Shown here: positions 5,861-58,385 of the stretch, one piece after another
How the letters are laid out: every line of letters starts with the position of its first letter
Position numbering within the stretch: position 1 is the stretch's first letter
Virus record (IMG/VR): IMGVR_UViG_3300028887_000070
Coordinates: 1-64,000 of that record
Length of the DNA stretch: 64,000 nucleotides
From: a virus
Taxonomy: Duplodnaviria > Caudoviricetes
Direction: 5' to 3' (one strand)
The notes under the pieces: model-generated
Database searches by the model: none
Told to the model about the DNA's origin: nothing
Seen by the model: only the letters and a program-made list of their open reading frames with translations
Program-made: the position numbers and the translations under genes

Positions 5861-5872
5861 AACATAATGGTA
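5861..5872 (+). promoter_or_regulatory. Late promoter of candidate sRNA
   Basis: AACA-TAATGG-TA. Confidence 0.55.
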
Positions 5873-6010
5873 AAGGAAGCATAGAACGGGTGGTGTTTCC
5901 TTTCATGGTGTCATAGTCCTCCTAGTTGCTAGTGATTTGGCTGATCATTAGTACGAAGACAATTAACCTCTCTAGAAGACTGGTAGGGTTCTTCCCTACC
6001 AGTCCTTCTT
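5872..6010 (+). ncRNA. Candidate small RNA with exposed anti-SD/anti-AUG segment
   Basis: Late promoter at 5861-5872, no ORF, 5' hairpin, CATAGTCCTCCT at 5912-5923, intrinsic terminator at 5978-6010. Confidence 0.5.
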
Positions 6011-6030
6011 ACGCATGGTTCGTGAATGTG

Positions 6031-6070
6031 TTATATTGTACCATATTGTACTATCTTGTAGCTATTGAAC
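6031..6070. repeat. Imperfect tandem 10-bp direct repeats
   Basis: TTATATTGTA CCATATTGTA CTATCTTGTA GCTATTGAAC directly upstream of the DNA polymerase promoter. Confidence 0.55.
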
Positions 6071-6078
6071 GAGCTCCT

Positions 6079-6090
6079 AACCATTAAATA
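6079..6090 (+). promoter_or_regulatory. Late-type promoter, AACC variant (DNA polymerase)
   Basis: AACC-ATTAAA-TA. Confidence 0.55.
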
Positions 6091-6141
6091 ATCAAGTAAT
6101 CGTACGTGTTTGGGACGATTACGTTCAAAGGAGGACTTTCA

Positions 6142-8142
6142 ATGATACAGATAGGAAACTACCCTTTGCAATACGACTTATCTCTATTGCAGACAATCTA
6201 TCATAGACCAAAGAAGAACAAGAACGGTACATACAGTGACATTCCAGACTCAATGGATCTTGTAATCAAGGACAATGTGAGTGGTGAGAAGTTCATTGAG
6301 ACTATAGAGAATCCAGAGTATACTTGGTATAAGATAAAGAACGAGGTATACATAGACTACAATCTTGCTTTCATAGAGAAAGAGAAGTGTGATGCGATAA
6401 CTGTTCCATATAGAAGACTTCTTAAGAGCATAGCAGAAGCAACTGGTAATGAGACATTCTACGACACCAATGCGGAGAATGGAGATTATAAGAACAATCA
6501 GAGACTTCATGAACATGTAAGAGTCATGGGTTCAGATATGAACATCGAAGACTTCTATAGATTTCAGTTCGGTGAGTCTTATAAGAATGCATTCGGACCG
6601 ATAGATAAGAGCTATCTCGATATCGAGGTTGACTCTAGAACAGCTAAGGGTGACTTCGTAGAACCAGGTGAGTGTCCAATCAATGCAGTGACATTCATAG
6701 ACGATAGAACTCAGACAGTATTCACCTTACTTCTTAGAGATCCATACAATCCCTTATGTCTGGAGTTCGAGAAGTTATTGAACAGTGGCGGATTTGAAGC
6801 AATAGCTAAAGACTTTGTTATCAATGCTGTTGGTGGAATGGAGAAAGCTAAGAAGTATCGTGTAGATACTCTTCAGTTCTCAACGGTTATGTATACTGAC
6901 GAGAAGGAGTTGATTAAGACTCTGTTCGATGTAATCAACAAGCTTGAACCAGACTTCTTGTTGGCATGGAACATGGCGTTCGATATCCCATACATCATCG
7001 AAAGATGTAAGAAGTTAGAGATGAAACCTGAAAAGGTGATGTGTCATCCAGACTTCAGATACAAGGAAGTTAGTTACTTTATCGATGATAAGAACTATAA
7101 TGAGTTTGCTGAGAGAAACGACTACTGTAAGATAAGTAGTAAGACAGTATACTTAGATCAGCTCATTCATTTCGCTAGTAGACGTAAGGGACGTTCAGCA
7201 ATCCCGAATTTCAGACTCGATAGTATAGCAGAGATGACAGTAGGCTTCGGTAAGCTTGACTATCATCACATCTGTGAGAAGCTTGAAGATCTTCCACAGA
7301 AGGACTATCTTACATTCGTACTGTACAATATCATGGACGTTATCTCTCAGTACTGTATCGAGAACAAGGTGAACGATGTAGGTAATGCATACAACAACGT
7401 TCTTCTGAACAACACTCGTATCAGTAAGATATATCGCCAGACGGTATACCTGAAGAATAGAGCCTTTAAGTCATACTGGAGACAGGGCTTCATCATGGGT
7501 AACAACAATAACAAGAATAACACCAAGACGAAGTTCCCAGGTGCTTGGGTATCTGACCCGACAAAGCTTGGACCTTACTCTAAGATGATAGTGAACGGTA
7601 AGCCTATCATGGTATTCAGAAACCTGAACGACTATGACTATAAGAGCCTTTACCCATCTATCACATCAGAACTCAATCTTGCAGCTAACACAATCATTGC
7701 TCGTATCATCATACCTGATCAGGTATATAAGAACGAGAACAGGTTTGCAAGAGAGGATTACAAGTATAAGAGAGAAGGACAGTTCCTTGAGGATTATCAG
7801 TCTCATCAGTGGCTTGAGTTCTATCATAGATGGTTCCATCTCGCTTCATATGAAGAGATGTATGATGATGTCATAACCTACTTCTCAGATATTGTACATC
7901 CGAGAGGTAAGCTTGATCTTCATTGTACAGAGGGAAGATATCTGTTCTATAAGGTACCGAACAGTACTACTCAGACATCTCCATTTGTTCCAAAGTGGGA
8001 GCAGAATGTGATGGATGAGAAAACTGAGTATCCACATAAGCAGTTCCCATTCAATGATGAAGTCAGAACTTTCTCAGAGTTCTATAACGAGATAGAGTCA
8101 AGAGAGGAGAACTGTTATAGTAGAGAGGTAGTAGAGGTATGA
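6142..8142 (+). CDS. Family B DNA polymerase, N-terminal subunit (3'-5' exonuclease plus motif A) of a split polymerase
   Basis: ExoI YLDIEV, ExoII AWNMAFDIPYI, ExoIII YNIMDV, motif A DYKSLYPS; motifs B and C absent; SD AAGGAGG before ATG 6142. Confidence 0.9.
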   Translation: MIQIGNYPLQYDLSLLQTIYHRPKKNKNGTYSDIPDSMDLVIKDNVSGEKFIETIENPEYTWYKIKNEVYIDYNLAFIEKEKCDAITVPYRRLLKSIAEATGNETFYDTNAENGDYKNNQRLHEHVRVMGSDMNIEDFYRFQFGESYKNAFGPIDKSYLDIEVDSRTAKGDFVEPGECPINAVTFIDDRTQTVFTLLLRDPYNPLCLEFEKLLNSGGFEAIAKDFVINAVGGMEKAKKYRVDTLQFSTVMYTDEKELIKTLFDVINKLEPDFLLAWNMAFDIPYIIERCKKLEMKPEKVMCHPDFRYKEVSYFIDDKNYNEFAERNDYCKISSKTVYLDQLIHFASRRKGRSAIPNFRLDSIAEMTVGFGKLDYHHICEKLEDLPQKDYLTFVLYNIMDVISQYCIENKVNDVGNAYNNVLLNNTRISKIYRQTVYLKNRAFKSYWRQGFIMGNNNNKNNTKTKFPGAWVSDPTKLGPYSKMIVNGKPIMVFRNLNDYDYKSLYPSITSELNLAANTIIARIIIPDQVYKNENRFAREDYKYKREGQFLEDYQSHQWLEFYHRWFHLASYEEMYDDVITYFSDIVHPRGKLDLHCTEGRYLFYKVPNSTTQTSPFVPKWEQNVMDEKTEYPHKQFPFNDEVRTFSEFYNEIESREENCYSREVVEV

Positions 8143-16126: not shown

Positions 16127-16130
16127 TGGC

Positions 16131-16140
16131 TATATATTAT
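16131..16140 (+). promoter_or_regulatory. Early promoter
   Basis: TATATATTAT. Confidence 0.65.
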
Positions 16141-16208: not shown

Positions 16209-16259
16209 ATGGCATATAGACTATGGCTCTACAAGAAAGGAGGAATGAGCTATGAATGA
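16209..16259 (+). CDS. Putative 16-aa leader peptide MAYRLWLYKKGGMSYE
   Basis: Strong SD GAAAGGAGG at good spacing; start codon sequestered in a stem; stop lies just inside the next gene. Confidence 0.35.
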   Translation: MAYRLWLYKKGGMSYE

Positions 16260-16905
16260 AGAAAAGAACAAACGCAAAGTACATTATGACAGTATTGATC
16301 CTGAACTATTCAGCGATCTAAAGAAAGATTATAAGAAGTATAAAGTCACTCCAGAAGCTATTGAAAACGCGAAACGTATGGCTACTCTCATAGGAGATAG
16401 TTTTGTCGTTCGCATCGACAAGGATACTTATCTTAGGGCTTTACTTGGTTCTATGTATAGAGAACTGAACGAGCCATCACCTATGGATCGAATGTATATG
16501 TATAAGGTACCATGTGTAGATGAGTCTGCTGTGGAAGATCCCACTAAATTTGGTATGGTTATACATCGTGATGGTATAGACTTAAACCTTAGAGGTATGC
16601 GAGCTTGTAGCATGTCGATAGATCTGTTCAATCACGAGATACCAGATCCACCAGAGAGAGACATCGTATCCATTATCAAGTCAGTAGACTATGACAGAAT
16701 AGAGAAGCTACTGACTACAAGACGCCATACACATTACTTATTTGATTCTTCGATACTTAGGTATCTTGAAGAGAAGGGGGATACTAATGTTACTTATATT
16801 AGCAAGATTAACGGTATCAGTGGCATATCCAGTCACTCTGACATGTATGCTGCTAACAATCATAAAATTGTTCCAACTACTAGACGTCGCCATAGACATC
16901 GTTAA
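16252..16905 (+). CDS. Hypothetical early protein
   Basis: SD AAAGGAGG. Confidence 0.7.
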   Translation: MNEEKNKRKVHYDSIDPELFSDLKKDYKKYKVTPEAIENAKRMATLIGDSFVVRIDKDTYLRALLGSMYRELNEPSPMDRMYMYKVPCVDESAVEDPTKFGMVIHRDGIDLNLRGMRACSMSIDLFNHEIPDPPERDIVSIIKSVDYDRIEKLLTTRRHTHYLFDSSILRYLEEKGDTNVTYISKINGISGISSHSDMYAANNHKIVPTTRRRHRHR

Positions 16906-26451: not shown

Positions 26452-27516
26452 TTAAGAGCTTGGTGCGTCTCCGCAGATAAAGTAATGATCGTTAAGCCAA
26501 TCCTTGTCAATCAACTGAGCTGTAGTACATAGAGTATTATAGTTTCCGTTTATATAGGCTATCGTCTCGCCACTTTTATGCTTAAGCTTAGAAGTGTTTA
26601 CCAAGTTTACACCAGATCCAAAAGATATACCTACTTTTCCGCTAGAGTCGTATGCACTAGTGGTAGTATAACTGAGGTCTACTACATTATACGCACATTG
26701 TCCATTGGCTTTTATGATAGACATATAGTATATCGATGTCGAAGAACCAGTGATATCGCCGACGACTTTACAAAACCTCATAGCAGTTCCACCAATAACA
26801 TAAGATGTATCTTCGTTACAAATCCAACGTTTGGAAGATATAGACAGTATACTATTAGTCATTACAATCGTACTTGAAGTACTATTGGGCCCAAATATGC
26901 ATCTTACACGTCTGCTCGCATCTCCGCTATTTGCAGCTTGTAAGTTGAATGAGCATTGGTTGATATATAAGTATCCATATTCGCTACTATTGTTAATACA
27001 GTATACAAAGTTTGAGTATTGTGAATCGAGCATTGCTGAAATCTTACATCTATAGAGTCGAAGACTGCCAGAACCATTAGAATTACTTTTGTGAAAACGT
27101 AACAAACGGCAATCGCTAGTGAGACCGAAAATGTATGCATTCTTGATTATCATGTCGTATATGTTTATAGTAGAAACTGAACTACTCTGTCCACCACCAT
27201 AGCTAGCTCTCATATAAAAGAATGTACTATCCATCATACTAAGTCCAAGAATAGTCCATCCATTGAAGTATATATTTATAGTCATAGCAGTTGAAGGTGT
27301 AAACTCTGTTGAAGTAATAGTGATGGGGTTCCATCCTCTAGAACGAAGATCGATGACTTTAGGACCATCATAGACTTCTGGGAAGGCTATGTAGTAATTA
27401 CCAGATGGAGACGCTGGTATATATGAGGTGTTAGTAAGTATAGTCCTGAGATCTTCTAACGTATCTATAGTAAGAGGATCGTTAGCATCTCTAATATCAC
27501 CGCCAAGTATAGCCAT
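26452..27516 (-). CDS. Beta-helix adhesin/receptor-binding-like protein, paralogue 4
   Basis: Shared blocks DP..I, AFPEVYDGPKVIDLR, NGWTILGLS, CKIS, CSFN and C-terminal QLIDKDWL. Confidence 0.65.
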   Translation of the reverse strand: MAILGGDIRDANDPLTIDTLEDLRTILTNTSYIPASPSGNYYIAFPEVYDGPKVIDLRSRGWNPITITSTEFTPSTAMTINIYFNGWTILGLSMMDSTFFYMRASYGGGQSSSVSTINIYDMIIKNAYIFGLTSDCRLLRFHKSNSNGSGSLRLYRCKISAMLDSQYSNFVYCINNSSEYGYLYINQCSFNLQAANSGDASRRVRCIFGPNSTSSTIVMTNSILSISSKRWICNEDTSYVIGGTAMRFCKVVGDITGSSTSIYYMSIIKANGQCAYNVVDLSYTTTSAYDSSGKVGISFGSGVNLVNTSKLKHKSGETIAYINGNYNTLCTTAQLIDKDWLNDHYFICGDAPSS

Positions 27517-27553
27517 TAAGCACACCTCCTTTCGCGAAGGTGTGTATGTAAGA

Positions 27554-33155: not shown

Positions 33156-33385
33156 AAAAATGATGACGGAGAACCCTGACACTCTCCGTCGCTTTTCAAT
33201 TAGTCTCCTAACGTACTACCTACTATCAGGATCATAGGTAGCAGGCTTTGCTCGTTAGGAGCACCTATAGCGCTCGAGTAATGACCCTTCCGAGAGCCAC
33301 TCAGATCATTACCCGCTCGCACTCTAAATATGATTCAATTATTCGCTCAACTCTTAGTACAGAGAGAACTTTAATCTTCTCACAC
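33156..33385 (-). ncRNA. Candidate structured ncRNA or attenuating leader
   Basis: Early promoter at 33390-33399; several long stems; terminator at 33156-33190. Confidence 0.5.
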
Positions 33386-33389
33386 CACT

Positions 33390-33399
33390 ATAGTATACA
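33390..33399 (-). promoter_or_regulatory. Early promoter
   Basis: TGTATACTAT. Confidence 0.6.
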
Positions 33400-33482
33400 G
33401 TTGTTCATGGATACTTTTACATATGTACATCTCTACCCAAACACCAACGATACAGTAATCAAAGATGAAAGGAGCGTGCCAT

Positions 33483-34292
33483 ATGCCGCAAGATCTCTTT
33501 CGCAACTCTCAAATCTGTTCAATGGTAGCAGAAGGTGAAGTTGCCAATATCTTATCGCATTTCGATTCCGATTATGTGATGACTGTAATACGTGATCACC
33601 TGGTTAATAGGTTCACCTATTCTAGTGCCGTGATGACAAAGCCAAACATAGTTGTATCATACAATATGACCTTCAGAAACCTTGAGCAAACTTATCCTCT
33701 CGATGTACAGAACATACGAGAGGTTGAGCAGGCCTCGTATCAGGAGATCATAGATACAATCTGCCAGTTCTATGGATTTCAGTTCATTCCTCCAGCAGAG
33801 GATACAAACCTGTCTACTATAGCACTCTACATGTATGAATGTTTTGTCTCTAAGTTTGACTTCTTTGTTTCTCAGTTCTATGCAAACTTTATCATGCTCA
33901 ACAAGGATGCTCTATGGGATGCACTCGAACTGGTTAACTACAAGAAAGACAAGGACGTTACTACAGTCTATGGTAAGAAAGCATACGATGACGTTAAGAT
34001 GGCTATCATCTGTGCGAAGATGAATGAAGTCCTTTACTACCTTAAGGGACTTGACATTGATCTTCCTACATTCCTTCAGACATGCTATCCTATAGAGTAT
34101 GCTCAACTCTTAGCAGATCATGTAAAGGGAGAGAACTTCTATGCAATGTTTGTAGCGAGTGCTATAGACATTCCTTCTGTTGTAACAGACATCAAACTCA
34201 AGATACACAATACGTTGTGTACTCAGAATGATATCTCTATACTCGTTCCTCAGCCAGAAGAGAATGGAGATACTGCAAGTAAGGAGGAATAA
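33483..34292 (+). CDS. Hypothetical late protein
   Basis: SD GAAAGGAG; AACG-N6-TA promoter. Confidence 0.75.
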   Translation: MPQDLFRNSQICSMVAEGEVANILSHFDSDYVMTVIRDHLVNRFTYSSAVMTKPNIVVSYNMTFRNLEQTYPLDVQNIREVEQASYQEIIDTICQFYGFQFIPPAEDTNLSTIALYMYECFVSKFDFFVSQFYANFIMLNKDALWDALELVNYKKDKDVTTVYGKKAYDDVKMAIICAKMNEVLYYLKGLDIDLPTFLQTCYPIEYAQLLADHVKGENFYAMFVASAIDIPSVVTDIKLKIHNTLCTQNDISILVPQPEENGDTASKEE

Positions 34293-34294
34293 CA

Positions 34295-35980
34295 ATGCCT
34301 ACTAGCAAGAGAGGTTATGAAATAGACTTATCTCATGAAGGTGCATACACTACTGGAGATAAGACTATATACGATGGTGCTGACCATACTGCTGAAGTGG
34401 ATCTGATCATCGGAGCCCTTGATGAACAGAGGAAACAGAATGTCGATAACCAGGCACTGGATCCTATCATCGGAAAAGCTCCAGAGATGAGAGGAAGATA
34501 TGATGGTTTTGCAGCTAATGTGAACCCGTTAGAAGCTGAGAGAATCACTGAAATGGATGAGATGGGAGCTCTCACTAGTGGAATAGTGAAGGGACTTCTC
34601 AGAAACCCAGACGGTATGTCCATAGAGGATCTCGACTACTTCACAAGAATACAGAAAGCAAATGCACAATACGATAAGGAGGACATGGCAATGGCCGAAA
34701 TGGAACAGAACATCCAGAACCAGATCAATGCTCAGGGATATGATACTATGGAGGGCTATATGGAAGCCAGCATAATGGCTGACCTTGGCAAAGTAGAATC
34801 AAGAATCCGTGATGCTGAAGATCCTAACGCAGCAATAGTTGAACCAGACGTAGAGGAGGTAAAGGAGGAAGAGTCCGAAGTGTTTCCTGCAGAAGCAGTC
34901 AACGCTGAAGCTACTGAGTATACTCCTGAAGTCGACACTGTTGAGAGTCTTGGCGAAGCTGTTCAGATGAATGATGATATGGAACCTGTAAAGGTTGCTG
35001 AAGAACAGAGCGCTCCTATAACAGATGAAGAGCTCGAGGACGTTCCCGTATCTACACTCGAAGTTACAGATGAACAGGTTCTTACAAACATGCATAATAT
35101 TGTCGGCGATGCGATCTCGGACAATGATGCTATGGCTCTTGTAGACATTATGAGACGTTATAAGTCAGGAGAGAAGTTCTCTGTATTCAATGCACTTCCT
35201 GAGACTATCAAGCTGCAGATCCGTAAGGCTGCTTCTGAGACTGGTGAAACACCCAGACATGCAATACTCGAGTTCTTCGCCAAGAACCTTATCAATGATA
35301 TCATCTCTGATGCTTTCATGAGCACTGAGATCAATAACTTCCAGGAAGAGTTAAACACATATGCTAAAGCTGCAGGTAATGTAACTGGTGTTATCGTTGA
35401 CTCTTATACTGATGAAGTAAAGGAGAAGTTCGAGACTGGTCTTCTTGAGACTGCTGACAAGATTCAGGAGTCTAATCCTGAGAAAGCAGAAGAGCTCAGA
35501 GAGATCGCTAAGTACTTTTGTTACACTCACACACTCGAACTCATCAAGAAGCACATCGAGAATGGTGGAGACACCTATCTTAACCGCTGCTATAAGAAGT
35601 CTCGTAAGATCAAGCAGTACACAGCATCCTTCAATGCTTACTATGAAGGTACTGTACCGAAGATCAGAGACATCGAATCACTCGCTATTCCATTCCGTCA
35701 GTTAATGGTGGATGAAGAGGTAGCCGAGACACTCGTAGTAATGCTTGGTGATTCTTGCTACGAACAGCCTAAGGGCTCGCTCGTAGGAAATGTCTATGCA
35801 TTCTATCTTCTCACTGGTGTAATGAATATCGCTATGTCTGCTGATACTAGTGATACTATCCGTGAGATCAGAAACAACATCGCTATCCTCGTATCAGAAG
35901 TCCGTCAGTTCCTCAACAGAAGAATGAAAGACTCCAAGTACGGTGGCAAAAAGAAGAAGGGTAAGAAGGGGAAGCGTTAA
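34295..35980 (+). CDS. Hypothetical acidic late protein with basic C-terminal tail
   Basis: SD AAGGAGG; ends GGKKKKGKKGKR. Confidence 0.75.
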   Translation: MPTSKRGYEIDLSHEGAYTTGDKTIYDGADHTAEVDLIIGALDEQRKQNVDNQALDPIIGKAPEMRGRYDGFAANVNPLEAERITEMDEMGALTSGIVKGLLRNPDGMSIEDLDYFTRIQKANAQYDKEDMAMAEMEQNIQNQINAQGYDTMEGYMEASIMADLGKVESRIRDAEDPNAAIVEPDVEEVKEEESEVFPAEAVNAEATEYTPEVDTVESLGEAVQMNDDMEPVKVAEEQSAPITDEELEDVPVSTLEVTDEQVLTNMHNIVGDAISDNDAMALVDIMRRYKSGEKFSVFNALPETIKLQIRKAASETGETPRHAILEFFAKNLINDIISDAFMSTEINNFQEELNTYAKAAGNVTGVIVDSYTDEVKEKFETGLLETADKIQESNPEKAEELREIAKYFCYTHTLELIKKHIENGGDTYLNRCYKKSRKIKQYTASFNAYYEGTVPKIRDIESLAIPFRQLMVDEEVAETLVVMLGDSCYEQPKGSLVGNVYAFYLLTGVMNIAMSADTSDTIREIRNNIAILVSEVRQFLNRRMKDSKYGGKKKKGKKGKR

Positions 35981-36028
35981 TCGCTTCCCTGAACTATCCT
36001 ATAAACTAAGAATAGGAGGTTCACTCTA

Positions 36029-36451
36029 ATGGTAAACGAAAAAGGAAGCTTAACTTTTCTGAAGACTGATGCTCAGTGCTTCTTTCAGCTTCAGTTAACA
36101 GTATGGAACCAGACAACTAATGGAGCTAAAGGAACTATCTTCCAGATAAGCTCTAACAATGAATATCAGATCGATGTCATCAGTGACGAGGCACCTGGTC
36201 TGAAGACTTACAACTGTAGAATCGTAGGATTCACCATGAGAAATCGTCCCGACTATAAGGGCTTTGTTAACTACGATAAGGAGACTAATCAGGCTAAGCT
36301 TGCAGAAGTAGACACTATCAAGATAGACTACTCTGAAGACGGTAAGGCTGGTGTTACTAGTATTAACGTATGTGATATCCGTGATATCAGACTGACTTAT
36401 GCACCTGGTCAGGACTTCGAGGTTATAAGAGATATCAAAGACTTTAAGTAA
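36029..36451 (+). CDS. Small virion-associated protein (paralogue of 25306-25638)
   Basis: DTIKIDYSEDG...INVCDIRDI. Confidence 0.65.
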   Translation: MVNEKGSLTFLKTDAQCFFQLQLTVWNQTTNGAKGTIFQISSNNEYQIDVISDEAPGLKTYNCRIVGFTMRNRPDYKGFVNYDKETNQAKLAEVDTIKIDYSEDGKAGVTSINVCDIRDIRLTYAPGQDFEVIRDIKDFK

Positions 36452-36464
36452 GGGGTGATATGAG

Positions 36465-37028
36465 ATGGCCAAATTCTATGAAGAGGATGGCTCCATTACA
36501 TCAACGGACAGAGTCCTTGATGAATACCATAAGAAGAAGGGCACACGAATGGAACAACTTTCTAATGATTATCTTGGAGCTACTCTTGAGGAAGCTTCCA
36601 AAGATACAGTCTCTTGGAATAAGGTGATATCTGGAACCAAGAGAAATAGTGATGGTACTCCTGATATGGGAGACATATCAGATGGCTATCATACATTCAA
36701 TGAGCTGTATGAGCATAGAAGTATACTCTTCTGCGCTCTCTGTGCAGCACTCAACTGGCATAATGAACAGTTCGATTATGAAGGACTTGATGTGGACACG
36801 GAAGTATGGTACTCCACCAAACATGATGACGGTACTATGTTTCCAGGTATGTTCATCGCTGGTATAACAAGTAAAGAGTATGGAAGTGTTACTTATCACT
36901 TTGATGAGAAGTATCTTCCGCTCTTCCGCAATGCTGGTATATCTTACAAGGAGAATGCTCCTAAGTGGGATGGCCATACACCAGAACAGGGACTTGAAGT
37001 TCTGAAGTGTCTGTTCTGTGACAGATAA
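36465..37028 (+). CDS. WDGH-motif conserved phage protein
   Basis: ISDGYHTFNELYEHR, HDDG.MF.GMFI.G, TYH and APKWDGHT. Confidence 0.7.
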   Translation: MAKFYEEDGSITSTDRVLDEYHKKKGTRMEQLSNDYLGATLEEASKDTVSWNKVISGTKRNSDGTPDMGDISDGYHTFNELYEHRSILFCALCAALNWHNEQFDYEGLDVDTEVWYSTKHDDGTMFPGMFIAGITSKEYGSVTYHFDEKYLPLFRNAGISYKENAPKWDGHTPEQGLEVLKCLFCDR

Positions 37029-37052
37029 CAAACTAAGAAAGAGGTAAACACC

Positions 37053-37913
37053 ATGAACAAGAACAACATTTCACCCACAGGCATCATGGCGACATTCGCC
37101 AACATTGTTTCCTATCTCATAGGAGCATACAACAAAGACAACGAGTTCGACGTTAAGAAGGACTTCGTTGACCAGGTTAAGGGATACAAGAGCTTTCTTG
37201 CAGACCAGAACTGGAATGCTACTACTCTTACTGCTGAAGAGATCACTGCATTCGGTGGTCTTAGAATAGCACCAGAGGAAGATCTCTTCTTCATTCCTCC
37301 TTGGCTTATAGAGTTCCTCCCTGAGGATTTTGAGTTGATCTCAATCAACCCTGATCCTAATGAAGAGAACGATTCAGTTAAGGCAGGAGAGATAGACAGG
37401 GAAAAGCTCTGGAGCGTGGATACGAACGACTACGGTGTCACCAAGTATGCTATTCAGGCAGTCTCAGAGTCCAACTTTAAGTCAAATAAGGGACTTATGT
37501 TTTCTGAAGCTCTTAAGCTGATCACTGATCCTAACAAGAATGGTATGATCATGAGACTTCCTAACTGGCAGCCAGATGTCTTCATCAAGACTCAGTGGCC
37601 TGATGAGCACAGCAAGATGACTCATCCTTACCTCTACGTAACCAGCAGATTCGGCTGTGTTCCGTGGAAGGAAACTGTGCCTGAGATGTTCAACTGCACT
37701 TGGGAAGTATATCAGGAGGATTACTACAATGAGTTAGTTGAAGAGATGAAGAAGCAGAAGGAAGCACTCTTCCAGAAGGCTGTACAGCAGAACATGACTG
37801 CTAACGGTGGTAAGGGTGTAAACGTAGAGCAGATCGGAAAGGATCTTCTTGAGGGACTCATGCAGAAGCCTGAAGAGCCTGCTAAAGAGAACCTTGAGGA
37901 AGTAGAGAAATGA
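37053..37913 (+). CDS. Multidomain protein with Tad2/DUF2829-like (nucleotide-signal sponge) domain
   Basis: FSEALKL...MRLPNW...FI...PYLYV...VPW.ET..EMF...WEV pattern. Confidence 0.6.
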   Translation: MNKNNISPTGIMATFANIVSYLIGAYNKDNEFDVKKDFVDQVKGYKSFLADQNWNATTLTAEEITAFGGLRIAPEEDLFFIPPWLIEFLPEDFELISINPDPNEENDSVKAGEIDREKLWSVDTNDYGVTKYAIQAVSESNFKSNKGLMFSEALKLITDPNKNGMIMRLPNWQPDVFIKTQWPDEHSKMTHPYLYVTSRFGCVPWKETVPEMFNCTWEVYQEDYYNELVEEMKKQKEALFQKAVQQNMTANGGKGVNVEQIGKDLLEGLMQKPEEPAKENLEEVEK

Positions 37914-38075
37914 ATAGCTGAACTGGAGTCAGGATTCGCTAAGCAAGAGAGTATCGTGACCAACCAGTTTGAAGAAGACTTCTTCTATCCAAGCTTCGAT
38001 AGTGAGATCACTACACGGTTCATCTGACAAAAAACAAACGGGAGGGCGCATAAGCGTCCTCCCTATCTGTTGTGT

Positions 38076-39620
38076 TTACTGCATAGCAACAACATGGTTC
38101 TTAACCACGATATGATTGGAGCAAATCTTATCGAATCCCTCATTGTGAGAGATTACCATAAGTGTGCTATGGCACTCACGGTTAATAAGATCGATAGCTC
38201 TATTTCTGTTTCTGTCGTCGAGGTTGCTAGTAACTTCGTCCAAGATGAAGATCTTGTTCGGGTTACGTCTCATCTCAACTACTGTTCTTGTAAGCAGAAC
38301 GCGCTGCTTAAGTCCAGTGGAGAGATTGAAACCCTTTGAGCCAACTGGACAGTCAAGAAGCTTGTCGATCTCTACAGGAACGCCTTCAACTCTGAAAGTG
38401 TTTCTAAGATCGTTAAGCATATCGAGTTCCTCAAAGATCTTGATGATCTCTTCATCGGTAACAGTCTCGTCACCAAATGTAACATTGTTTCTGAGACTAT
38501 CATTCAGAAGAGTTGTCTCCTGGAATACATAGTATGTATCCAGATTTTCTGGGAGACCAAAGATCTCTTCAGACTTAATCGCGCCAGCAATGAGATTACC
38601 GAAGCTTGACTTGCCCTCACCAGACGCACCAGTGATAAGATATCTTTCACAGCGTCTGATACTGATGTTGTTCACAGTGAACTGAGCGCTGTCCTTCCCA
38701 TAATCGAAAGAGCCAGATACTGTGAACTGAGAAGGCATAGAAACCTTCTCATCGTTATCGTTGCCTTCGAGAGCTTCAATCTGCTTGGTAGCAGCCTTGA
38801 TCTTCGAAGTGTATGCAACGATATCGATACACTTGAAGATCGAATTGTAGATCACGTATTCATTGATAAATACGTAACCCAAAGTTTCAACATCCCATCT
38901 AAAGAAGTATGCAATGAAACATACAGGGACATAAGAGACAGCCTGGCACAAACCGAACCAGGCACGCTTCTTAGTATTGGTGCTATACTTATATGAGTCA
39001 TCTGCTGCATCGGTGACTCTGTTAAATAAGTAAGAGAACTTACTAGCGTACTTGAGAGTAAGTAAGTTCTCAAGGCCATCAACAAGAACTGACTCAAGCT
39101 TAGCAGCAGCCTTGTGTTCGTTCTCGTTGAACTTGAACTTTTCGTTGCCCCATAAGTACATAGCAGAGCTAAGTACGAAGCAGCTGAAAAGGATGGCTAT
39201 AGATGCAATGGAAGTACGGATCTTCCATATCATAATAGCCATAGGAAGAATACAACTGAAGCATGATACGATTGTCACGTATCTCTGTCCAGTGTATTCA
39301 GAGATCTTATTGATACTGTCGATGATAGTACCAACAGAGATCTTATTGATACTCTTAGTCTCAGACCAAGCCGACTTCTCAGTCAGTCTAGTCTTAAGAT
39401 CAAAGTATACTGTTGAGCTGGCCTTACGACCAGCTGCATCTCTCGCTGTATCGAGAACGGCGAAAGATACATTGCAAATGATGAGACCGATAAACAATCT
39501 CTTACTGAATCCATTAGCAATGAGCTTTGATATTACTGTAGCGTTGGCAGTGTTCTGTAAGCCAACAAGAATTGTTAAAACCACCATTGAGATAGTGAGC
39601 ATAGTTACCTTCTTCTTCAT
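38076..39620 (-). CDS. ABC exporter (fused transmembrane plus ATPase domains)
   Basis: Hydrophobic N-terminal half; Walker A GASGEGKS, signature variant LSTGLKQR, Walker B IFILDE, H-loop ISH. Confidence 0.88.
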   Translation of the reverse strand: MKKKVTMLTISMVVLTILVGLQNTANATVISKLIANGFSKRLFIGLIICNVSFAVLDTARDAAGRKASSTVYFDLKTRLTEKSAWSETKSINKISVGTIIDSINKISEYTGQRYVTIVSCFSCILPMAIMIWKIRTSIASIAILFSCFVLSSAMYLWGNEKFKFNENEHKAAAKLESVLVDGLENLLTLKYASKFSYLFNRVTDAADDSYKYSTNTKKRAWFGLCQAVSYVPVCFIAYFFRWDVETLGYVFINEYVIYNSIFKCIDIVAYTSKIKAATKQIEALEGNDNDEKVSMPSQFTVSGSFDYGKDSAQFTVNNISIRRCERYLITGASGEGKSSFGNLIAGAIKSEEIFGLPENLDTYYVFQETTLLNDSLRNNVTFGDETVTDEEIIKIFEELDMLNDLRNTFRVEGVPVEIDKLLDCPVGSKGFNLSTGLKQRVLLTRTVVEMRRNPNKIFILDEVTSNLDDRNRNRAIDLINRECHSTLMVISHNEGFDKICSNHIVVKNHVVAMQ

Positions 39621-39680
39621 ATAAAGGCCTCCTTTCAACCTTAGTTAGATTTTGTTAGAAGAATGCTTATAACTACCTAT

Positions 39681-39690
39681 ATAGTATACA
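39681..39690 (-). promoter_or_regulatory. Early promoter (ABC exporter)
   Basis: TGTATACTAT. Confidence 0.65.
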
Positions 39691-39736
39691 ACCCAAAAGC
39701 GGTAAGATGGCGGGAGCACTTAAGCTCCCGCCACTC

Positions 39737-42097
39737 TTAATAGTCATAGTAGAAGTCGTCTTCATCATCGTCATCCACACTACTGTATGGATCATTCATG
39801 TCCTTATAGAACTGGTCTATAGTACCAAGCATACTATACTGATTTGCAGGATCCTCCAACTCTTCTATAGGCTTGTTAAACTTCTGGCTGTATGCCTTTC
39901 TACCTACTGGAGTAGAGAGAATCTTCTGAAGAGCCTCTTGGTCTTCTTGTCTCTGCTGCTCTAACCAGTCCTTATAGAGCATAGTACCATCATCAAGGTC
40001 CTTAAGCTGCTGCTCTACTCTACCATGCATTCCCTCAAGGTCGCTAGAGATATTGATTCCCTCTGTAGCCTCGAAGCTCTGAAAGATAGGCTCTTCAGCT
40101 TCATGCTGTTCAGTCTGGAGGTTAGGTATTCTGATACCCCAGTTCTCTGTCACGTTCTTACCGTAGTACAGAGGATAGAGTGAAAGGAGATAAGAGAATA
40201 CTGCGTCATCGTGGCTCTGAGCAGAATGATCGATTCTACCAGTCTTCTTCACCTCAAGGTTCTTCAGCTCTTCATATATGATAGGAGATACGAATTTGTC
40301 CTTATGGTCTTCCATTCTAAGCATGAGAAGATCCATGAGCTGTTCTCTGACTATCTTGGTGTTGTCGAGTCCATAGACTCTAGTAAGTTGTTTCTTACGA
40401 TTGATATGGACTCCGTCATACTTCTCTTCTATAGTCCTCTCCTTTATCTCATAGTAGAGATTGGACTTTATCTTAGACTTGAGAAGCTTTGCTAGTACAC
40501 CTGTACCTACACCGTTACGCTCGACTACTACCAGAGCATTTGGTATCCAGTTAGTTACCACATCATAGATGACTCTAGCGAAGTCGATAGTGGAGATATA
40601 GTTACAGTTGAAGTCTGCCATAAGCTTAGACGTTGTAGAGTCTGTTATACTCATAGCAGATGAGTCCTTATTGTAACCAGCAGCAACGTCACATCCAACG
40701 ATAGGAGCAATACCTGGTCTGAGCTCTTCGTATACATTGAGAAGGAATGCTCCGACATAGACTTGCTTCTTAGGCTGCTTAACGAATCTACCAACGATAT
40801 CGAGCTGCTCTTTAGTGAACGGTGAGTTCTCTGCAGACATAGCCCACTCGAGAAGGAACTCTCGACGGATGTCTGTCCATTTGTACTCTTGTTCACGGCA
40901 ACGATCTTTGAACCACTCTTCTGAATAACCAAGCTGTTGATAAGTAGTCTTGATATGTACGAAGATACTCTTCTCGTTGGAGTTGAGTATATTAGTAAGC
41001 TCTTGAAGTGAAAGGTCATACCAGAGTTCAGAGAACGGAGTCATATTGCTTCTCATATCATACATATACTTACCGAACTCATCAGAGATAAATCCAGGTG
41101 TAGATGTCAGACAGAGACCATGAGGAGCTCCATTATCACGACAGTTTCTGAAGGCTCTAGTCATGGCAGGCATTGCATTAGAGAGCGACTCTCCAAGGAA
41201 TGGGAAGAACGCAGACTCGTCGAGCCAACAGTTAGTGATAGTACGACCTCTGAGGAGGGAGATAGCAGCAGTCTTAGAGGTTGCTCTAGCGAGTGCTTCT
41301 ATCTTGTTGAAGTTGATTGGGTGCTGTACATAAGATACAGTATTACGGGCCTTGAGCTTCTTACCATTCTGGCCAAATGCCTGATCGAATCTAAGGTAAG
41401 ATGGCAGAGCCTGTATAATCTTCTTCATATCATCAAGGTTTCTCTTAGCATCGTCCAGCTTCTTGTTAAGGAAGACCATGTTAGCGTTTCGAGAACCGAA
41501 GTTGTATACCCATGAATACCATACTTCACATCCTACAGTTTTACCAGTCTGACGAGGCTGCTCATGGTACACATTAAGAGACAGCGTAAAGCAGAAGTTA
41601 AGGGCTAGATTTCCTCTGTCAAGTTTATACCTGACGTAGGGTCCACCCTGGCTCTGTACTCTAACGACTTCTCTGATGTAGTAGAAGAAGTTACGTTGAC
41701 ACTCTATGAAGATCTTCTGCTTCATGAACAGAGGAAGCTTAGGATCATAGGGATCTACATTAGCAAGATCCTTATCAAAGAGTATAAGGAAGAACTTATT
41801 GTTCTTGATTCCTATAGCTTTCAGATAGTAGTGCATATCCAGAAAGCTTTGGTTCTTAGTATTCATCTGAAAGTAGACAGTAGACCTTTGTCCCGTAAGA
41901 GGATCAGTCATCACATTCTTGTTCTGACTAGGAGGTACAAAGGGTATAGTCTTTTTAGCTTTCATTTGTGATGGATCAATGTATTGATTAGTCTGAACTG
42001 TTCCATCGTAGAAGATCTCTGACTGATTAGAACCAGTATAAGTACGGTCTTCTTTAGCAGTCTCTTCTTCAAGAACGAGTTCGATTGTACTTGCCAT
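39737..42097 (-). CDS. terL: Terminase large subunit
   Basis: Walker A PRQTGKT, Walker B WLDES, coupling motif TST, nuclease GCDVAAG and HDDAV. Confidence 0.92.
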   Translation of the reverse strand: MASTIELVLEEETAKEDRTYTGSNQSEIFYDGTVQTNQYIDPSQMKAKKTIPFVPPSQNKNVMTDPLTGQRSTVYFQMNTKNQSFLDMHYYLKAIGIKNNKFFLILFDKDLANVDPYDPKLPLFMKQKIFIECQRNFFYYIREVVRVQSQGGPYVRYKLDRGNLALNFCFTLSLNVYHEQPRQTGKTVGCEVWYSWVYNFGSRNANMVFLNKKLDDAKRNLDDMKKIIQALPSYLRFDQAFGQNGKKLKARNTVSYVQHPINFNKIEALARATSKTAAISLLRGRTITNCWLDESAFFPFLGESLSNAMPAMTRAFRNCRDNGAPHGLCLTSTPGFISDEFGKYMYDMRSNMTPFSELWYDLSLQELTNILNSNEKSIFVHIKTTYQQLGYSEEWFKDRCREQEYKWTDIRREFLLEWAMSAENSPFTKEQLDIVGRFVKQPKKQVYVGAFLLNVYEELRPGIAPIVGCDVAAGYNKDSSAMSITDSTTSKLMADFNCNYISTIDFARVIYDVVTNWIPNALVVVERNGVGTGVLAKLLKSKIKSNLYYEIKERTIEEKYDGVHINRKKQLTRVYGLDNTKIVREQLMDLLMLRMEDHKDKFVSPIIYEELKNLEVKKTGRIDHSAQSHDDAVFSYLLSLYPLYYGKNVTENWGIRIPNLQTEQHEAEEPIFQSFEATEGINISSDLEGMHGRVEQQLKDLDDGTMLYKDWLEQQRQEDQEALQKILSTPVGRKAYSQKFNKPIEELEDPANQYSMLGTIDQFYKDMNDPYSSVDDDDEDDFYYDY

Positions 42098-42157
42098 AAT
42101 AACACCTCTTTCTGTAGTTTGATACAGTGTAATGAGTGGGCTCTCAATAGCCCTCTT

Positions 42158-42169
42158 TACGGAGATGTT
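42158..42169 (-). promoter_or_regulatory. Late promoter (terminase)
   Basis: AACA-TCTCCG-TA. Confidence 0.7.
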
Positions 42170-42174
42170 CGACA

Positions 42175-42371
42175 AGAAAAAATAACCTCTTAGAAGAGGA
42201 GTATCAGCGATATGCTATGTGGAGTAGGAACCACATATGTGCCGCATATCGCTGGATACTGAGTGACGACCAAGTCGCCACGGAAAGGAGACTACAGGTC
42301 ATTTGGAAACCTGCAGATAGACATAGTTTTTAACTGCTTCATCTACCTTGTGCCTCGGCAGAGAAGTTGTC
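42175..42371 (-). ncRNA. Structured 3' trailer with anti-SD fold-back segment and terminator
   Basis: Several long stems; 13-nt complement to the upstream SD region at 42284-42296; terminator CCTCT...AGAGG plus T tract. Confidence 0.5.
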
Positions 42372-42905
42372 TTAGAATTCTTCTTTAAAGAATACTGATG
42401 CGTTTTCGGTAGCAACGGATAGTGATGCTATATCTCCATTGTAGTTATATACACGGAGATCGAATCTAGCGTCCGCAAGGTATGATGCCATACCGTAGAG
42501 CAGCACTGCTGCTCTTTTATTGAATCTTTTATTCTGCCATACAGTGTTTAAAAGATAGTCTTCAAAGACGACATCTTCCCACTTTATAACATTAAGCCAT
42601 TCGCAGTCAGTTGGTCTAACAGTGCCGAGCCACTCGATAAGATTATCTACTTCAGCCCAGCTTACGATATATGCTAAAGCGGAAAGCGCATTGTATGGGT
42701 CTGTGTGTTTCACTGCTTCTACAAAGGCTACTACAGCCTTGCAGAACTTTCTGGAATCCAGAATACTATCAGTATCTGGTACTCCAGCGACCAGGATATC
42801 ACCATATTCATTTTGGGTGACGAACAGTTCTGCAATCTTATTGCAGATCTCTTCAGTCGAATATGTGCATCCAGATTCAACCTTGTTGTTAATGTTAGCT
42901 TTCAT
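42372..42905 (-). CDS. Hypothetical early protein lacking a proximal SD
   Basis: 177 aa ORF between two structured RNA segments. Confidence 0.6.
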   Translation of the reverse strand: MKANINNKVESGCTYSTEEICNKIAELFVTQNEYGDILVAGVPDTDSILDSRKFCKAVVAFVEAVKHTDPYNALSALAYIVSWAEVDNLIEWLGTVRPTDCEWLNVIKWEDVVFEDYLLNTVWQNKRFNKRAAVLLYGMASYLADARFDLRVYNYNGDIASLSVATENASVFFKEEF

Positions 42906-43090
42906 AATGTATGCTCAGTAGGTGCTACACGCTTGACGGGCGACAAGCTGAGCGAATATAGTCTCCTTTGGAGACATCCTTTACAGGATACACCCTTTGT
43001 TACCTGCTGCATGAGATCCCGTTCTCCTTGCGGGACCATAGATAATTTACAGCTAGGTGCATGAAGATTCGATCGTGATCCTCATACACC
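42906..43090 (-). promoter_or_regulatory. Structured 5' leader with sequestered SD
   Basis: Five hairpins; AAAGGAGA sequestered locally in GTCTC-CAAAG-GAGAC. Confidence 0.5.
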
Positions 43091-43093
43091 TCA

Positions 43094-43103
43094 ATGATAT
43101 ACA
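43094..43103 (-). promoter_or_regulatory. Early promoter
   Basis: TGTATATCAT followed by a long hairpin. Confidence 0.55.
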
Positions 43104-43188
43104 ACCCATATAGCTAACTTTTACGATACCCCCTACATATATATAATCAGTGCCTACATGGACACTTAAAACAAAGGAGGACACACAT

Positions 43189-44016
43189 ATGCCACTTGGT
43201 AACAACTCATACAACAAGGGTAACTCAAACGGAAAGAAGAACGACTTCTCTCCTACAACCTACTCAAACATAAGGATCTCTAACTACAACTCTACTGTAG
43301 ATCCTACATCAGTCTCCTTCGCATTCTGGAAGGGAATGCTTAGGATATCAATCACACCTATCAAGAAGAGTGCAGACGGAGGTTACAACTTCGACAAGGA
43401 CAACTCTATAGAAGTATACCTCACTCCCACCAGAGCTGCTCTCTTCCTCAACTATCTCAAGCAGTTCAGAAAGGACCCCAATGCATACATTAACTTAGGT
43501 GTTACTTCAGGTAATGCTATCATCTATGTAACAAACGGTGCAGAGGAGTTCGAAGGACAGGACGGAAACGGAATCTTTCTTATTGTAAAGAGTCTTGACG
43601 AGAAGGGTAACATCGACTCTGAGATTGCTTACCAGTTCAAGACTACACCTGATAAGGATAACTTTGGTATCATCAACTACAAGGGCGGTACAGACTTCAC
43701 TAAGGACTATGAGTACACAAAGTTCCTTGACTATGATATCTTCACCAACTCAATAGCTCAGTACGTTAATAGCAATAGCAGTGCAGTTGCAGCTACAGTT
43801 GTTGACGCTACTAGATTCTCATTCAACAGTATCATCGGCAAACTGACAAGCATTCAGGAGAACCTCGGTATCGATACTGGAAGTGGATACAAGAGAAAGT
43901 CGAACGCATCAGCATTCTTCTCAAATAACGGCAATGAGTCTACATCATCTTCAACTGTTCATAATAGTGATAAGATTGAAGAAGTGGACGACTACCAGGA
44001 TCTCATAGACATGTAA
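43189..44016 (+). CDS. Probable single-stranded DNA-binding protein
   Basis: Beta-rich core with low-complexity then acidic C-terminal tail (EEVDDYQDLIDM); function inferred from architecture. Confidence 0.4.
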   Translation: MPLGNNSYNKGNSNGKKNDFSPTTYSNIRISNYNSTVDPTSVSFAFWKGMLRISITPIKKSADGGYNFDKDNSIEVYLTPTRAALFLNYLKQFRKDPNAYINLGVTSGNAIIYVTNGAEEFEGQDGNGIFLIVKSLDEKGNIDSEIAYQFKTTPDKDNFGIINYKGGTDFTKDYEYTKFLDYDIFTNSIAQYVNSNSSAVAATVVDATRFSFNSIIGKLTSIQENLGIDTGSGYKRKSNASAFFSNNGNESTSSSTVHNSDKIEEVDDYQDLIDM

Positions 44017-46519: not shown

Positions 46520-46735
46520 GTGGCATACTCCGACCCATAAGGTACTGATGAGTAGAAACTAGTGTACCTGTACAGATATCCCTCTCTTGGACATGTGTGG
46601 GTATCGTTGGGGTTAGTGTCCTTTCAACACCATTCAAAGAGGTGGGTAGGGAGTTCATCTCCCTACCCATTCTCCCCAATCAAGTCTTACCAAACGCATA
46701 ACTTTACTATAACCGATATAATGGAGGTGTACCGT

Positions 46736-47518: not shown

Positions 47519-47520
47519 AT

Positions 47521-54861: not shown

Positions 54862-55058
54862 GACGAGCTGAACGTCTTTGCAGTAACGTATACAAGGGGA
54901 GAGTGTCGTTCATGGAACTTATGACGATGCCTCCCGCTTGGTTTAACTGTCTTTACATGATCGCTATGGAAAAGCAAGAGCAGCATGCTAAAGAATTGGC
55001 TGAGCAAGCCCAAGCTGATGCAATAGAAGAAGCAATAGAGGAAGGAGGAGCTATGTAG
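54825..55058 (+). CDS. -1 frame extension of the preceding gene (probable programmed frameshift product)
   Basis: Open -1 frame 54807-55058 with no clear upstream start; CTTTTT at 54820-54825; encodes YKGRVSFMELMTMP. Confidence 0.55.
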   Translation, partial: YTSSAGSLSADIRRAERLCSNVYKGRVSFMELMTMPPAWFNCLYMIAMEKQEQHAKELAEQAQADAIEEAIEEGGAM

Positions 55059-57138: not shown

Positions 57139-57151
57139 GGAGGTACTAACA

Positions 57152-57526
57152 ATGGACGAATACATCAGAGACGTTATCGACAGTAAGCGTATGCTTGTTG
57201 TTGAGAGAGCTGTAGACGAAGACCTTCAGGCTGAGAAGGATCTCAGTATTGAAGTCAATACAGTTGTAGGAAAGTTCGTCGATGGTTTCATCTCTCAGGA
57301 AGAGATCGATGGTTGCCAGCTCTGCGAAGAGGAGCTTAATGGTACACTCGATGATCTTATAGATGATGCCGAAGCAGACGAGATTACATTATATGAGCCT
57401 GATACATTCTCCGACGATGACGGAGAACTTTCAGATATCAATGCTATACTTGACTCAGATATAGATCCCGAACTTCTTGAGCTGGACGATGATGAGTCTA
57501 TGTATTGTGAACCTAATGTAGACTAA
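57152..57526 (+). CDS. Acidic late protein
   Basis: SD AAGGAGG before ATG 57152. Confidence 0.65.
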   Translation: MDEYIRDVIDSKRMLVVERAVDEDLQAEKDLSIEVNTVVGKFVDGFISQEEIDGCQLCEEELNGTLDDLIDDAEADEITLYEPDTFSDDDGELSDINAILDSDIDPELLELDDDESMYCEPNVD

Positions 57527-57540
57527 GGGAGGTACTTACT

Positions 57541-58098
57541 ATGAACATCGTAAGAAAAAAGTGTATGCTCATTACACCTTGTAACGTAACATTCAAGATC
57601 TCAAGTGGTAAAGAGCTTAAGCCTAACACAAAGAGCATCGAGTTCGTATGGACTAAAGAGATACTCATCGCTATGAATAGTGGTATCAGAGTATTTGAGA
57701 TTGGTTCAGACGGCAAGCAGGTTCAGCTTGATAAGAGCAACTTCGACAAAATCAACGTTCTCATGGACTATCCTTCAGAGGAAAAGATAGAAGAGAAAAA
57801 AGAAGAGACTGTTGAAGAGGAAGCTCCAAAGGTTGAAGAGTCTGTAGCTGCTCCTACTCCTGTTGAAGCTCCAGTAGAGGAGCCTAAGGAAGAGCCTACT
57901 CCTGAAGAGACAGTAGATCCTGCAGAGGAGGAATCACCTTCTGAAGAAGATTACGAACCCGAAGATGAGACTACTGAAGAAGAGATCGACATGACACCTC
58001 AGGAAGATCCTGAAGCTAAGTACTATCAGAATGACTCTGAGGATGATTGTGACGAAGAGAAGCAAGACAACGAAGACGACGAGTTCAACGTTGACTGA
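57541..58098 (+). CDS. Glu/Pro-rich acidic protein
   Basis: SD GGGAGG. Confidence 0.65.
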   Translation: MNIVRKKCMLITPCNVTFKISSGKELKPNTKSIEFVWTKEILIAMNSGIRVFEIGSDGKQVQLDKSNFDKINVLMDYPSEEKIEEKKEETVEEEAPKVEESVAAPTPVEAPVEEPKEEPTPEETVDPAEEESPSEEDYEPEDETTEEEIDMTPQEDPEAKYYQNDSEDDCDEEKQDNEDDEFNVD

Positions 58099-58119
58099 TA
58101 AGAAACAATGCGTTTCTCG

Positions 58120-58370
58120 AAAAAGGATGCTGGGTCCATGTGCGGACCCAGCCTATTCTCTGTGTGTGACGAGATAAATATAGTTTTCGAACAAGTCATG
58201 TAGCAGTACTAATTACACGACTCGGCTTTTAAGACTTGGCACTCTTAGTAAGAACCGCCGCAAGTTTCAAAATCGTCCATGTGTCACACCTCCTTTCTGT
58301 GGCTCATACACTCTAAAGGAGACAAGGAGTGTACAAGATCTGCTATTATCTATATCTTTAAACGCAGACA
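58120..58370 (-). ncRNA. Candidate structured early RNA carrying an 11-aa micro-ORF (58245-58280, MDDFETCGGSY)
   Basis: Early promoter at 58376-58385; SD AAAGGAGGT; stems; terminator at 58120-58153. Confidence 0.45.
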
Positions 58371-58375
58371 TTTTA

Positions 58376-58385
58376 ATAATATATA
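58376..58385 (-). promoter_or_regulatory. Early promoter
   Basis: TATATATTAT. Confidence 0.6.

Follow-up and report, generated by a model that had tools for sequence, protein, structure and literature searches.

Does a jumbo phage time its gene expression with RNAs that hide ribosome-binding sites? The question is raised by six intergenic loci, at 5.9, 16.2, 27.5, 33.3, 42.2-43.1 and 58.2 kb of a 64,000-nucleotide (nt) stretch of DNA, hereafter the window. The window comprises bases 1-64000 of a 231,846-bp IMG/VR virus record (IMGVR_UViG_3300028887_000070) that was judged complete and represents an uncultured AR9-like jumbo phage. It was proposed in a sequence-only reading that structured RNA at these loci contains Shine-Dalgarno (SD) or anti-SD sequences, and that the phage, having only two promoter classes, refines its timing through small RNAs and fold-back messenger RNAs (mRNAs) that sequester SDs. 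Our analysis indicates that the six loci are likely a set of varied RNA elements and not one SD-hiding mechanism.

Part of the proposal stands. All six loci are non-coding gaps, and five of them fold better than dinucleotide shuffles (200 shuffles). The z scores are -4.76 at 5.9 kb (+), -2.33 at 16.2 kb (+; 3 of 200 shuffles as good), -5.44 at 33.3 kb (-), -7.03 at 42.2 kb (-), -3.57 at 43.0 kb (-) and -3.10 at 58.2 kb (-), the last locus reaching -6.75 in a relative. The folding of the 27.5 kb (-) region is not significant (z = -1.39, 17 of 200 shuffles as good). At 5.9, 33.3, 42.2, 43.0 and 58.2 kb, compensatory changes accompany a conserved structure. The refuting outcomes named beforehand for structure, a lack of conservation and folding no better than that of shuffles, are thus not what is observed. 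Each locus does contain SD or anti-SD words, whose meanings differ: they are ribosome sites, arms of hairpins, a CU-rich stretch of an untranslated region (UTR) or part of a loop. Three loci have, by motif, their own promoter and a terminator-like hairpin, as had been read: 5.9 kb (+), 33.3 kb (-) and 58.2 kb (-).

The window encodes a DNA polymerase fragment, the large terminase, a GroEL-like protein and an RNA polymerase (RNAP) beta'-like subunit, at a G+C content of 41%. The closest phage relatives of the RNAP beta' subunit, ~31% identical, are AR9-type jumbo phages of Bacillus, Staphylococcus and Listeria. The AR9-like assignment, which had also been made before, is supported by this identity together with the fit of both AR9 promoter consensi. 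DNA sequencing runs that contain window sequence are mostly bovine-gut metagenomes, and the host is probably a strongly SD-dependent Firmicute. No near-identical phage records were found. The relatives available for comparison are a close, complete genome of 229 kb (G001), two large fragments (G002 and G003), three shorter contigs and distant phages at 43-44% protein identity. A search for transfer RNA and transfer-messenger RNA genes found none. None of the elements matches a family in a scan with the Rfam 15 covariance models at gathering scores, a check that had been suggested earlier; at E <= 1 two chance-level matches appear, both elsewhere in the window.

Ribosome-site accessibility and promoter classes

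We calculated the probability that an SD is unpaired in its predicted transcript for 176 genes, with 40 shuffled-flank controls per gene. Native SDs are more open than the controls (0.553 vs 0.502, Wilcoxon p = 0.0013), the opposite of the trend that a phage-wide sequestration layer would leave. The sequestered 5% tail holds 8% of the genes, and the open tail holds 12.5%.

The gene map made for this analysis contains 205 predicted genes, with 92.6% of the sequence coding and 7.4% non-coding, in agreement with the earlier description of a tightly packed genome. Almost every gene in this map has a very strong AAAGGAGG-type SD 7-8 nt before its start, and SD words and their complements are therefore to be met everywhere in intergenic DNA. 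With the real ribosome sites masked, both strands of the non-coding DNA contain 27 orphan SD-type 7-mers, vs 10.3 +/- 4.0 in shuffles. These words correspond to 17 sites: two unannotated genes, three mini-ORFs (ORF, open reading frame), five terminator stems and seven sites that are unexplained.

Folding predicts occlusion of a real start at two places at most, the 27.5 kb hairpin and the 58.2 kb loop-SD pairing, where it would act locally. At 27.5 kb a 9-bp stem covers the SD GGAGGUGUG, and at 58.2 kb the pairing of a loop with the SD is possible; no SD is held in a stable stem at 16.2, 33.3 or 43.0 kb. An SD-sequestering structure in cis is conserved only for the 58.2 kb loop, and not at 27.5 kb. 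The strongest single predicted SD occlusion in the window is found outside the six loci, in a 48-codon ORF at 54912-55058 (+), whose SD is almost fully paired (probability of being unpaired 0.001 vs 0.51 in the controls).

The early and late promoters follow the logic of AR9. The AR9 early consensus is AAATATATATTAT-N6-G (PMC5312081), and early units of the type transcribed by the virion RNAP are present here as intergenic AAATATATATTAT motifs with a G start 6 nt on. The early motif TATATATTAT occurs 18 times, 16 of them intergenic, and is followed by six bases and then G (A at one site); the sites at 16133 (+), 58383 (-), 60219 (+) and 63398 (+) carry N6-G or N6-A. The late motif AACA-N6-TA fits the AR9 late consensus (PMC5312081). 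Its spacing is strict, as in promoters of the AR9-type non-virion RNAP: 47 of 169 matches are non-coding, vs 12 of 180 with N5 and 7 of 258 with N7.

A third, promoter-like motif, GTAAAAGT-N13-TGTATA, is present five times (window 33393-33420 and 43097-43124; genome 129280, 168731 and 178161). Every copy is intergenic, on the minus strand and ahead of a long structured RNA. The motif is kept at orthologous sites in G001 and G002, and the GGAGG SD is absent from all four genes headed by it. A consensus scan ruled out a sigma-70-type promoter as its identity. The premise that the phage has only two promoter classes is therefore doubtful. Sigma-70-type matches are depleted in the region 33000-43300 of the window (11 vs 21.5 +/- 5.2 in shuffles) and terminator-like sites are enriched (16 vs 5.7 in shuffles), which fits independence from the host polymerase.

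Of the nine early transcripts predicted, seven have a hairpin whose start is within 4 nt of +1 (mean z = -2.3). Much of what was taken as structured RNA is thus common to the transcripts at large. Strong hairpins are also present where genes end.

RNA elements between 16 and 44 kb

The 33.3 kb locus contains a predicted structured RNA of ~235 nt (33150-33393, -). It is preceded by the third motif, here GTAAAAGT-N13-TGTATAC (33393-33420, -), which overlaps a match to AACA-N6-TA at 33405 and is kept at the orthologous site of G001. The window and G001 share 72 pairs, with six compensatory and eight one-sided changes, none broken, and 20 varying paired columns. The GGAG and CUCC words of this locus are the two arms of one internal hairpin. 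A terminator scan identified an intrinsic terminator with a U-tract (33165-33190, -) that ends 27 nt before the SD of gene 32658-33128, and two pairs of its stem are compensatory. G001 lacks this downstream gene and has a second terminator instead; the missing gene suggests a stand-alone RNA. The locus appears to specify a conserved RNA with its own terminator, which is either a stand-alone RNA or, in the window, an attenuating leader. No counterpart was found in the relative G005.

The sequences at 42.2 and 43.0 kb appear to belong to a single mRNA, in which a covarying leader replaces the SD and the 3' UTR is rich in hairpins. The copy of the third motif at 43124-43097 (-) is predicted to drive a multi-hairpin leader of 165 nt (42898-43062, -). 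Five copies of the leader can be aligned, one from the window and two each from G001 and G002, and seven pairs show double changes; a covariance model built from it finds only these five copies in 909 kb. The start codon of gene 42372-42905, a 177-codon ORF of unknown family, is an SD-less AUG that lies 7 nt past the last leader helix. The GGAG and CUCC words are again arms of a local hairpin. We rejected the GGAG of this GUCUCC/GGAGAC hairpin as the ribosome site of the gene, as it is CGAG in G001 with a compensating change, and an upstream ORF (uORF) inside the leader was rejected since three of the five copies do not keep it. The loop of the first leader hairpin, ~110 nt upstream of the SD-less start, is always GGAGAA.

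The 3' UTR of the same gene (42176-42371, -) consists of five hairpins, an unpaired CU-rich stretch GUAGUCUCCUUUCC and a terminator found by the terminator scan (42186-42199). Compared with G001, none of its 59 pairs is broken, and variable columns are 5 of 118 among paired and 28 of 107 among unpaired positions. The late promoter of terL (42169-42158, -), an AACA-N6-TA motif, follows immediately. The idea of a fold-back mRNA fails at this message. Its leader and trailer share 11 nt of complementarity in the window, which a C/G swap breaks in G001. The leader hairpin of G001 is changed on both arms and the trailer is unchanged, which supports the local hairpin and argues against the fold-back.

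At 16.2 kb, the early promoter GGCTATATATTAT (16128-16140, +; predicted +1 near 16147) fits the AR9 early consensus and is kept in G001 and G003 with one A-to-G change each. A leader hairpin stands between the promoter and a 16-codon uORF, MAYRLWLYKKGGMSYE, which is read directly at 16209-16259 (+) and has a perfect SD of its own, AAAGGAGG. The UGA stop of the uORF lies 3 nt past the AUG of gene 16252-16905. In G001 the uORF has one synonymous and two replacement changes; it is absent in G003, whose downstream gene differs. The SDs of both the uORF and the gene are unpaired in the minimum-energy fold, and the probability of being unpaired is 0.99 for the main SD. No sequestration is therefore predicted at this locus, which looks like an early leader whose seemingly translated uORF is linked to the gene by the overlap of stop and start.

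The intercistronic hairpin at 27.5 kb (27521-27544, -; 9 bp) begins ~10 nt past the stop codon of the upstream paralog, one of four in tandem, and its 3' arm is the SD of gene 26452-27516. No equivalent was found at the other paralog junctions or in G001 and G003, where a terminator and a late promoter are present. The simplest reading of this predicted hairpin is lineage-specific local translational coupling. Translation of one paralog would depend on ribosomes finishing the upstream paralog.

The 58.2 kb and 5.9 kb RNAs and their possible roles

The 58.2 kb unit occupies a convergent gap and is predicted to be a self-contained early transcript (58120-58369, -), conserved in four distinct sequences. 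Its perfect early promoter TATATATTAT (58376-58385, -), with the +1 G at 58369, is kept in four distinct relatives. The transcript starts with a 5' hairpin at +1. It is followed by hairpin 2 (58337-58303, -), whose loop (58326-58314) carries the anti-SD UCUCCUUU, and by a perfect, extended SD AAAGGAGGUG (58296-58287, -) ahead of an 11-codon ORF, MDDFETCGGSY (58280-58245, -). A long-range GUGUGAC/GUCACAC helix comes next in order, and the terminator (58129-58152, -) also serves the convergent gene. Pairing in hairpin 2 amounts to 94%, with three compensatory pairs. The 8-bp pairing between its loop and the SD is kept in four of four sequences via three one-sided changes that give G-U pairs. We read the unit as an early micro-ORF RNA whose ribosome site could be closed by the predicted loop-SD pseudoknot.

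Neither the AR9-like phage Goe21, where a small membrane-protein ORF occupies the site, nor a relative at 43% identity (L007) has the unit, and a metagenome scan for further relatives gave no new sequence covering it. A paralog of the mini-ORF at 230.9 kb was considered and discarded, the only other "MDD" start belonging to an unrelated LAGLIDADG-like gene. A third orphan perfect SD with a 10-codon ORF (MIYIEYRWRG) is located at genome 158857 (+), in a 389-bp gap, and resembles the mini-ORFs at 16.2 and 58.2 kb.

It is conceivable, although unlikely, that the 58.2 kb unit, the 16.2 kb uORF and perhaps the minus strand at 5.9 kb are simply genes of tiny proteins, whose RNA structure is stabilising or incidental and involves no regulatory pairing. 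The SDs are strong and canonically spaced, the uORF is kept in G001, and in the first nine codons of the 58.2 kb mini-ORF third positions vary in 7 of 9 cases vs 5 of 18 for first and second positions. However, these nine codons are the only ones conserved: the ORF has 10, 11, 22 and 22 codons in the four sequences, and the tail of the peptide changes. The ORF is furthermore embedded in the conserved long-range helix, and the loop-SD complementarity is retained in every sequence. At 5.9 kb, the 33-codon minus-strand ORF (5805-5906) was rejected, as it is broken by 1-nt indels in the relatives and has no promoter motif upstream.

On the plus strand, the 5.9 kb locus has a late-type promoter, AACA-TAATGG-TA (5861-5872, +), which matches the AR9 late consensus (PMC5312081) and is kept in G001 and G003. 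The predicted product of ~140 nt (5872-6012, +) has, by motif, its own promoter and terminator and no ORF, and is a candidate late, trans-acting small RNA. An 11-bp hairpin at the predicted +1 is followed by the unpaired GUCCUCCUA, a middle hairpin, the unpaired ACCUCUCU and a closing GGUAGGG/CCCUACC hairpin without a U-tract (5968-6006). The consensus fold of three phages has 46 pairs, with three compensatory, five one-sided and six broken in at least one sequence. Both unpaired CU-rich stretches are invariant while the middle hairpin covaries. A second late promoter, AACACTCTTATA (5848-5837, -), is arranged back to back with the first; it serves gene 4826-5812 and leaves it with a short, open leader.

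The GGTAGGG/CCCTACC-armed hairpin is recurrent (window 5968-6006, 46640-46680 and 58403-58427; genome 212631). All eight copies are intergenic, at gene ends and usually without a U-tract. It may be a terminator or a processing signal for the phage polymerases.

Could the late 5.9 kb RNA and the early 58.2 kb RNA act in trans, pairing through a CUCC like that of 16S ribosomal RNA (16S) with SD regions of phage or host and thereby silencing a set of messages? Both are self-contained by motif, their CU-rich segments are invariant or show only G-U-compatible changes next to covarying stems, and the 58.2 kb loop of the relatives, ACCUCCUU, is identical to the 16S 3' end. For the 5.9 kb segment, the strongest predicted duplex forms with the start region of gene 144298-146829 (-30.1 kcal/mol vs a median of -16.6), and the duplex with its G002 ortholog reaches -26.5 kcal/mol. 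This target is nevertheless not outstanding, because the same energy is reached against some other gene by 8% of random antisense-of-start-region probes. The seed is invariant across the relatives, leaving co-variation with the target unscorable. SD flavours are alike across the promoter classes, so no class-specific targeting is apparent. In the 58.2 kb RNA a perfect SD ~20 nt downstream would compete in cis, the mini-ORF has codon-like substitutions, and the unit has the restricted distribution described above. We consider silencing in trans quite unlikely.

We assign little probability to the related idea that the two RNAs display copies of the 16S anti-SD as ribosome-site decoys, or as silencers, taking out of translation the SD-led messages that come from the host or from the previous temporal class. 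Such RNAs, if they do this, would add a small translational switch made of RNA to the transcription programme of the two polymerases.

A phage-wide layer, in which small RNAs and fold-back mRNAs hide SDs and refine timing beyond two promoter classes, would account for conserved structured intergenic RNAs with promoter and terminator motifs and for anti-SD words at several of them, but it is highly improbable in view of the open SDs genome-wide and at 16.2 kb, the third promoter-like class, the fold-back pairing without covariation, the 27.5 kb hairpin that is not conserved, and the GGAG/CUCC words at 33.3 and 43.0 kb that are local hairpin arms, one of which loses its GGAG in G001 with the hairpin kept. 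What remains of the small-RNA idea are conserved structured RNAs, some of them self-contained and small-RNA-like, but no SD-hiding system that spans the phage.

If the six loci are varied elements, their 5' hairpins, strong orphan ribosome sites and 3' hairpins would mainly shield RNA from 5' and 3' exonucleases. In Bacillus, 5' stem-loops and SD-like stabilisers are known to act in this way. The corresponding 5' features are the +1 hairpins of the early transcripts and the orphan strong SDs with mini-ORFs at 16194 and 58293.

Several points weigh against the varied-element reading. Orphan SD and anti-SD words are still somewhat enriched past the obvious classes, with ~7 unexplained sites, and conserved CUCC-type motifs are predicted to be single-stranded at 5.9, 42.2 and 58.2 kb. 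The accessibility controls are mononucleotide flank shuffles evaluated by thermodynamic folding only, and both the gene map and the transcription start sites are predictions. Because each locus has only two to five informative related sequences, the covariation evidence is qualitative and the tests have little power. The transcribed strands of the loci are read from sequence alone. Four metatranscriptome runs from wastewater and activated sludge (X15-X18), compared with the 42-61 kb region, contain only relatives at 90-95%, as unstranded contigs. These cover mainly the 43.3-58.0 kb gene block and end near 58025, where the relatives diverge, with nothing usable over 58.1-58.4 kb, and are thus uninformative on transcription of the loci.

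Known systems and further features of the genome

The elements belong to kinds that were already known, among phage leaders, small RNAs, uORFs and hairpins that stabilise RNA. For an uncultured jumbo phage of the gut, the analysis adds RNA elements that are conserved and had no annotation, together with a third promoter-like motif. It also adds an SD-less start behind a covarying leader, a leader common to the split halves of the DNA polymerase, and an early mini-ORF RNA whose loop-SD pairing is conserved. The phage-wide proposal, if true, would have added a translational timing layer to the two-polymerase paradigm of AR9 and phiKZ, which our tests make unlikely.

In AR9, 5' UTRs measure 26-491 nt, and antisense and internal promoters were described along with two predicted UTR motifs whose function is unknown (PMC5312081). 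The phage studied here has the same early TATATATTAT-N6-G and late AACA-N6-TA promoter logic. It differs in its RNAP beta' (~31% identical), its G+C of 41% and the extra class GTAAAAGT-N13-TGTATA. Goe21 has no detectable counterpart of the structured RNAs at the syntenic site.

Eleven small RNAs were mapped in the giant phage 201phi2-1 (PMC11512511). Short intergenic and 5'-UTR-derived transcripts of 201phi2-1 and phiKZ have a start site and a nearby terminator, and one is conserved among giant phages (PMC11512511). The units predicted here are likewise short and bounded by start and terminator. In contrast, those are Pseudomonas phages with transcripts mapped by long reads, the present units are predicted from the DNA, and no sequence or Rfam similarity is found.

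SD-like sequences and ribosome binding near 5' ends stabilise mRNAs of B. subtilis and phage SP82 (PMC7509114). The 5' stabilisers of Bacillus include 5'-terminal stem-loops, STAB-SD, the SP82 polypurine sequence and the ermC leader peptide (PMC7509114). The +1 hairpins and the strong 5' SDs and mini-ORFs, which need not make a useful protein, resemble them, a likeness that suits the leader at 16.2 kb and the 5' portion of the 58.2 kb RNA. The 58.2 kb unit differs in that it has no downstream gene to stabilise.

Gram-positive small RNAs with C-rich loops, such as RsaE/RoxS and S. aureus RNAIII, pair with SD regions. The likeness consists in unpaired C/U-rich motifs in loops or between hairpins and in the terminator hairpin that closes the small RNA. 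Unlike these systems, the best predicted target here is not outstanding, and the 58.2 kb RNA has its own SD and mini-ORF.

In T4, hairpins in early transcripts occlude the ribosome sites of e, soc, 49 and I-TevI, RegB cleaves at GGAG, and gp43 has an autogenous operator. The 27.5 kb hairpin similarly occludes an SD in cis; there is no late promoter inside it, and the T4 timing trick is therefore absent. A counterpart of the gp43 operator may be found in the leader of the DNA polymerase gene (6079-6135, +; 57 nt), where an 8-bp hairpin GUAAUCGU/ACGAUUAC likewise stands directly 5' of the SD. The SD itself is outside the hairpin. A second copy of the leader (genome 210401-210456, +) stands ahead of a second DNA polymerase fragment. 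The copies are 93% identical, the leader is invariant in three phages, and both downstream genes (6142-8142 and 210462-212618) match DNA polymerase PHROGs. By analogy with T4, the shared leader is a candidate translational operator common to both halves of the split DNA polymerase.

Two repeats are common to both ends of the record, one of 829 bp with 90% identity (window 1-995 and genome 231019-231846) and one of 133 bp with 98.5% identity (window 1-133 and genome 229644-229776). These repeats are diverged terminal or near-terminal duplications. Several late promoters stand immediately behind terminators. In one repeated cassette the T-tract of the terminator runs directly into the late promoter (TTTTTTGTCGGAAACATC...), at window 60591-60644 and at genome 127795-127829 and 164428-164481.

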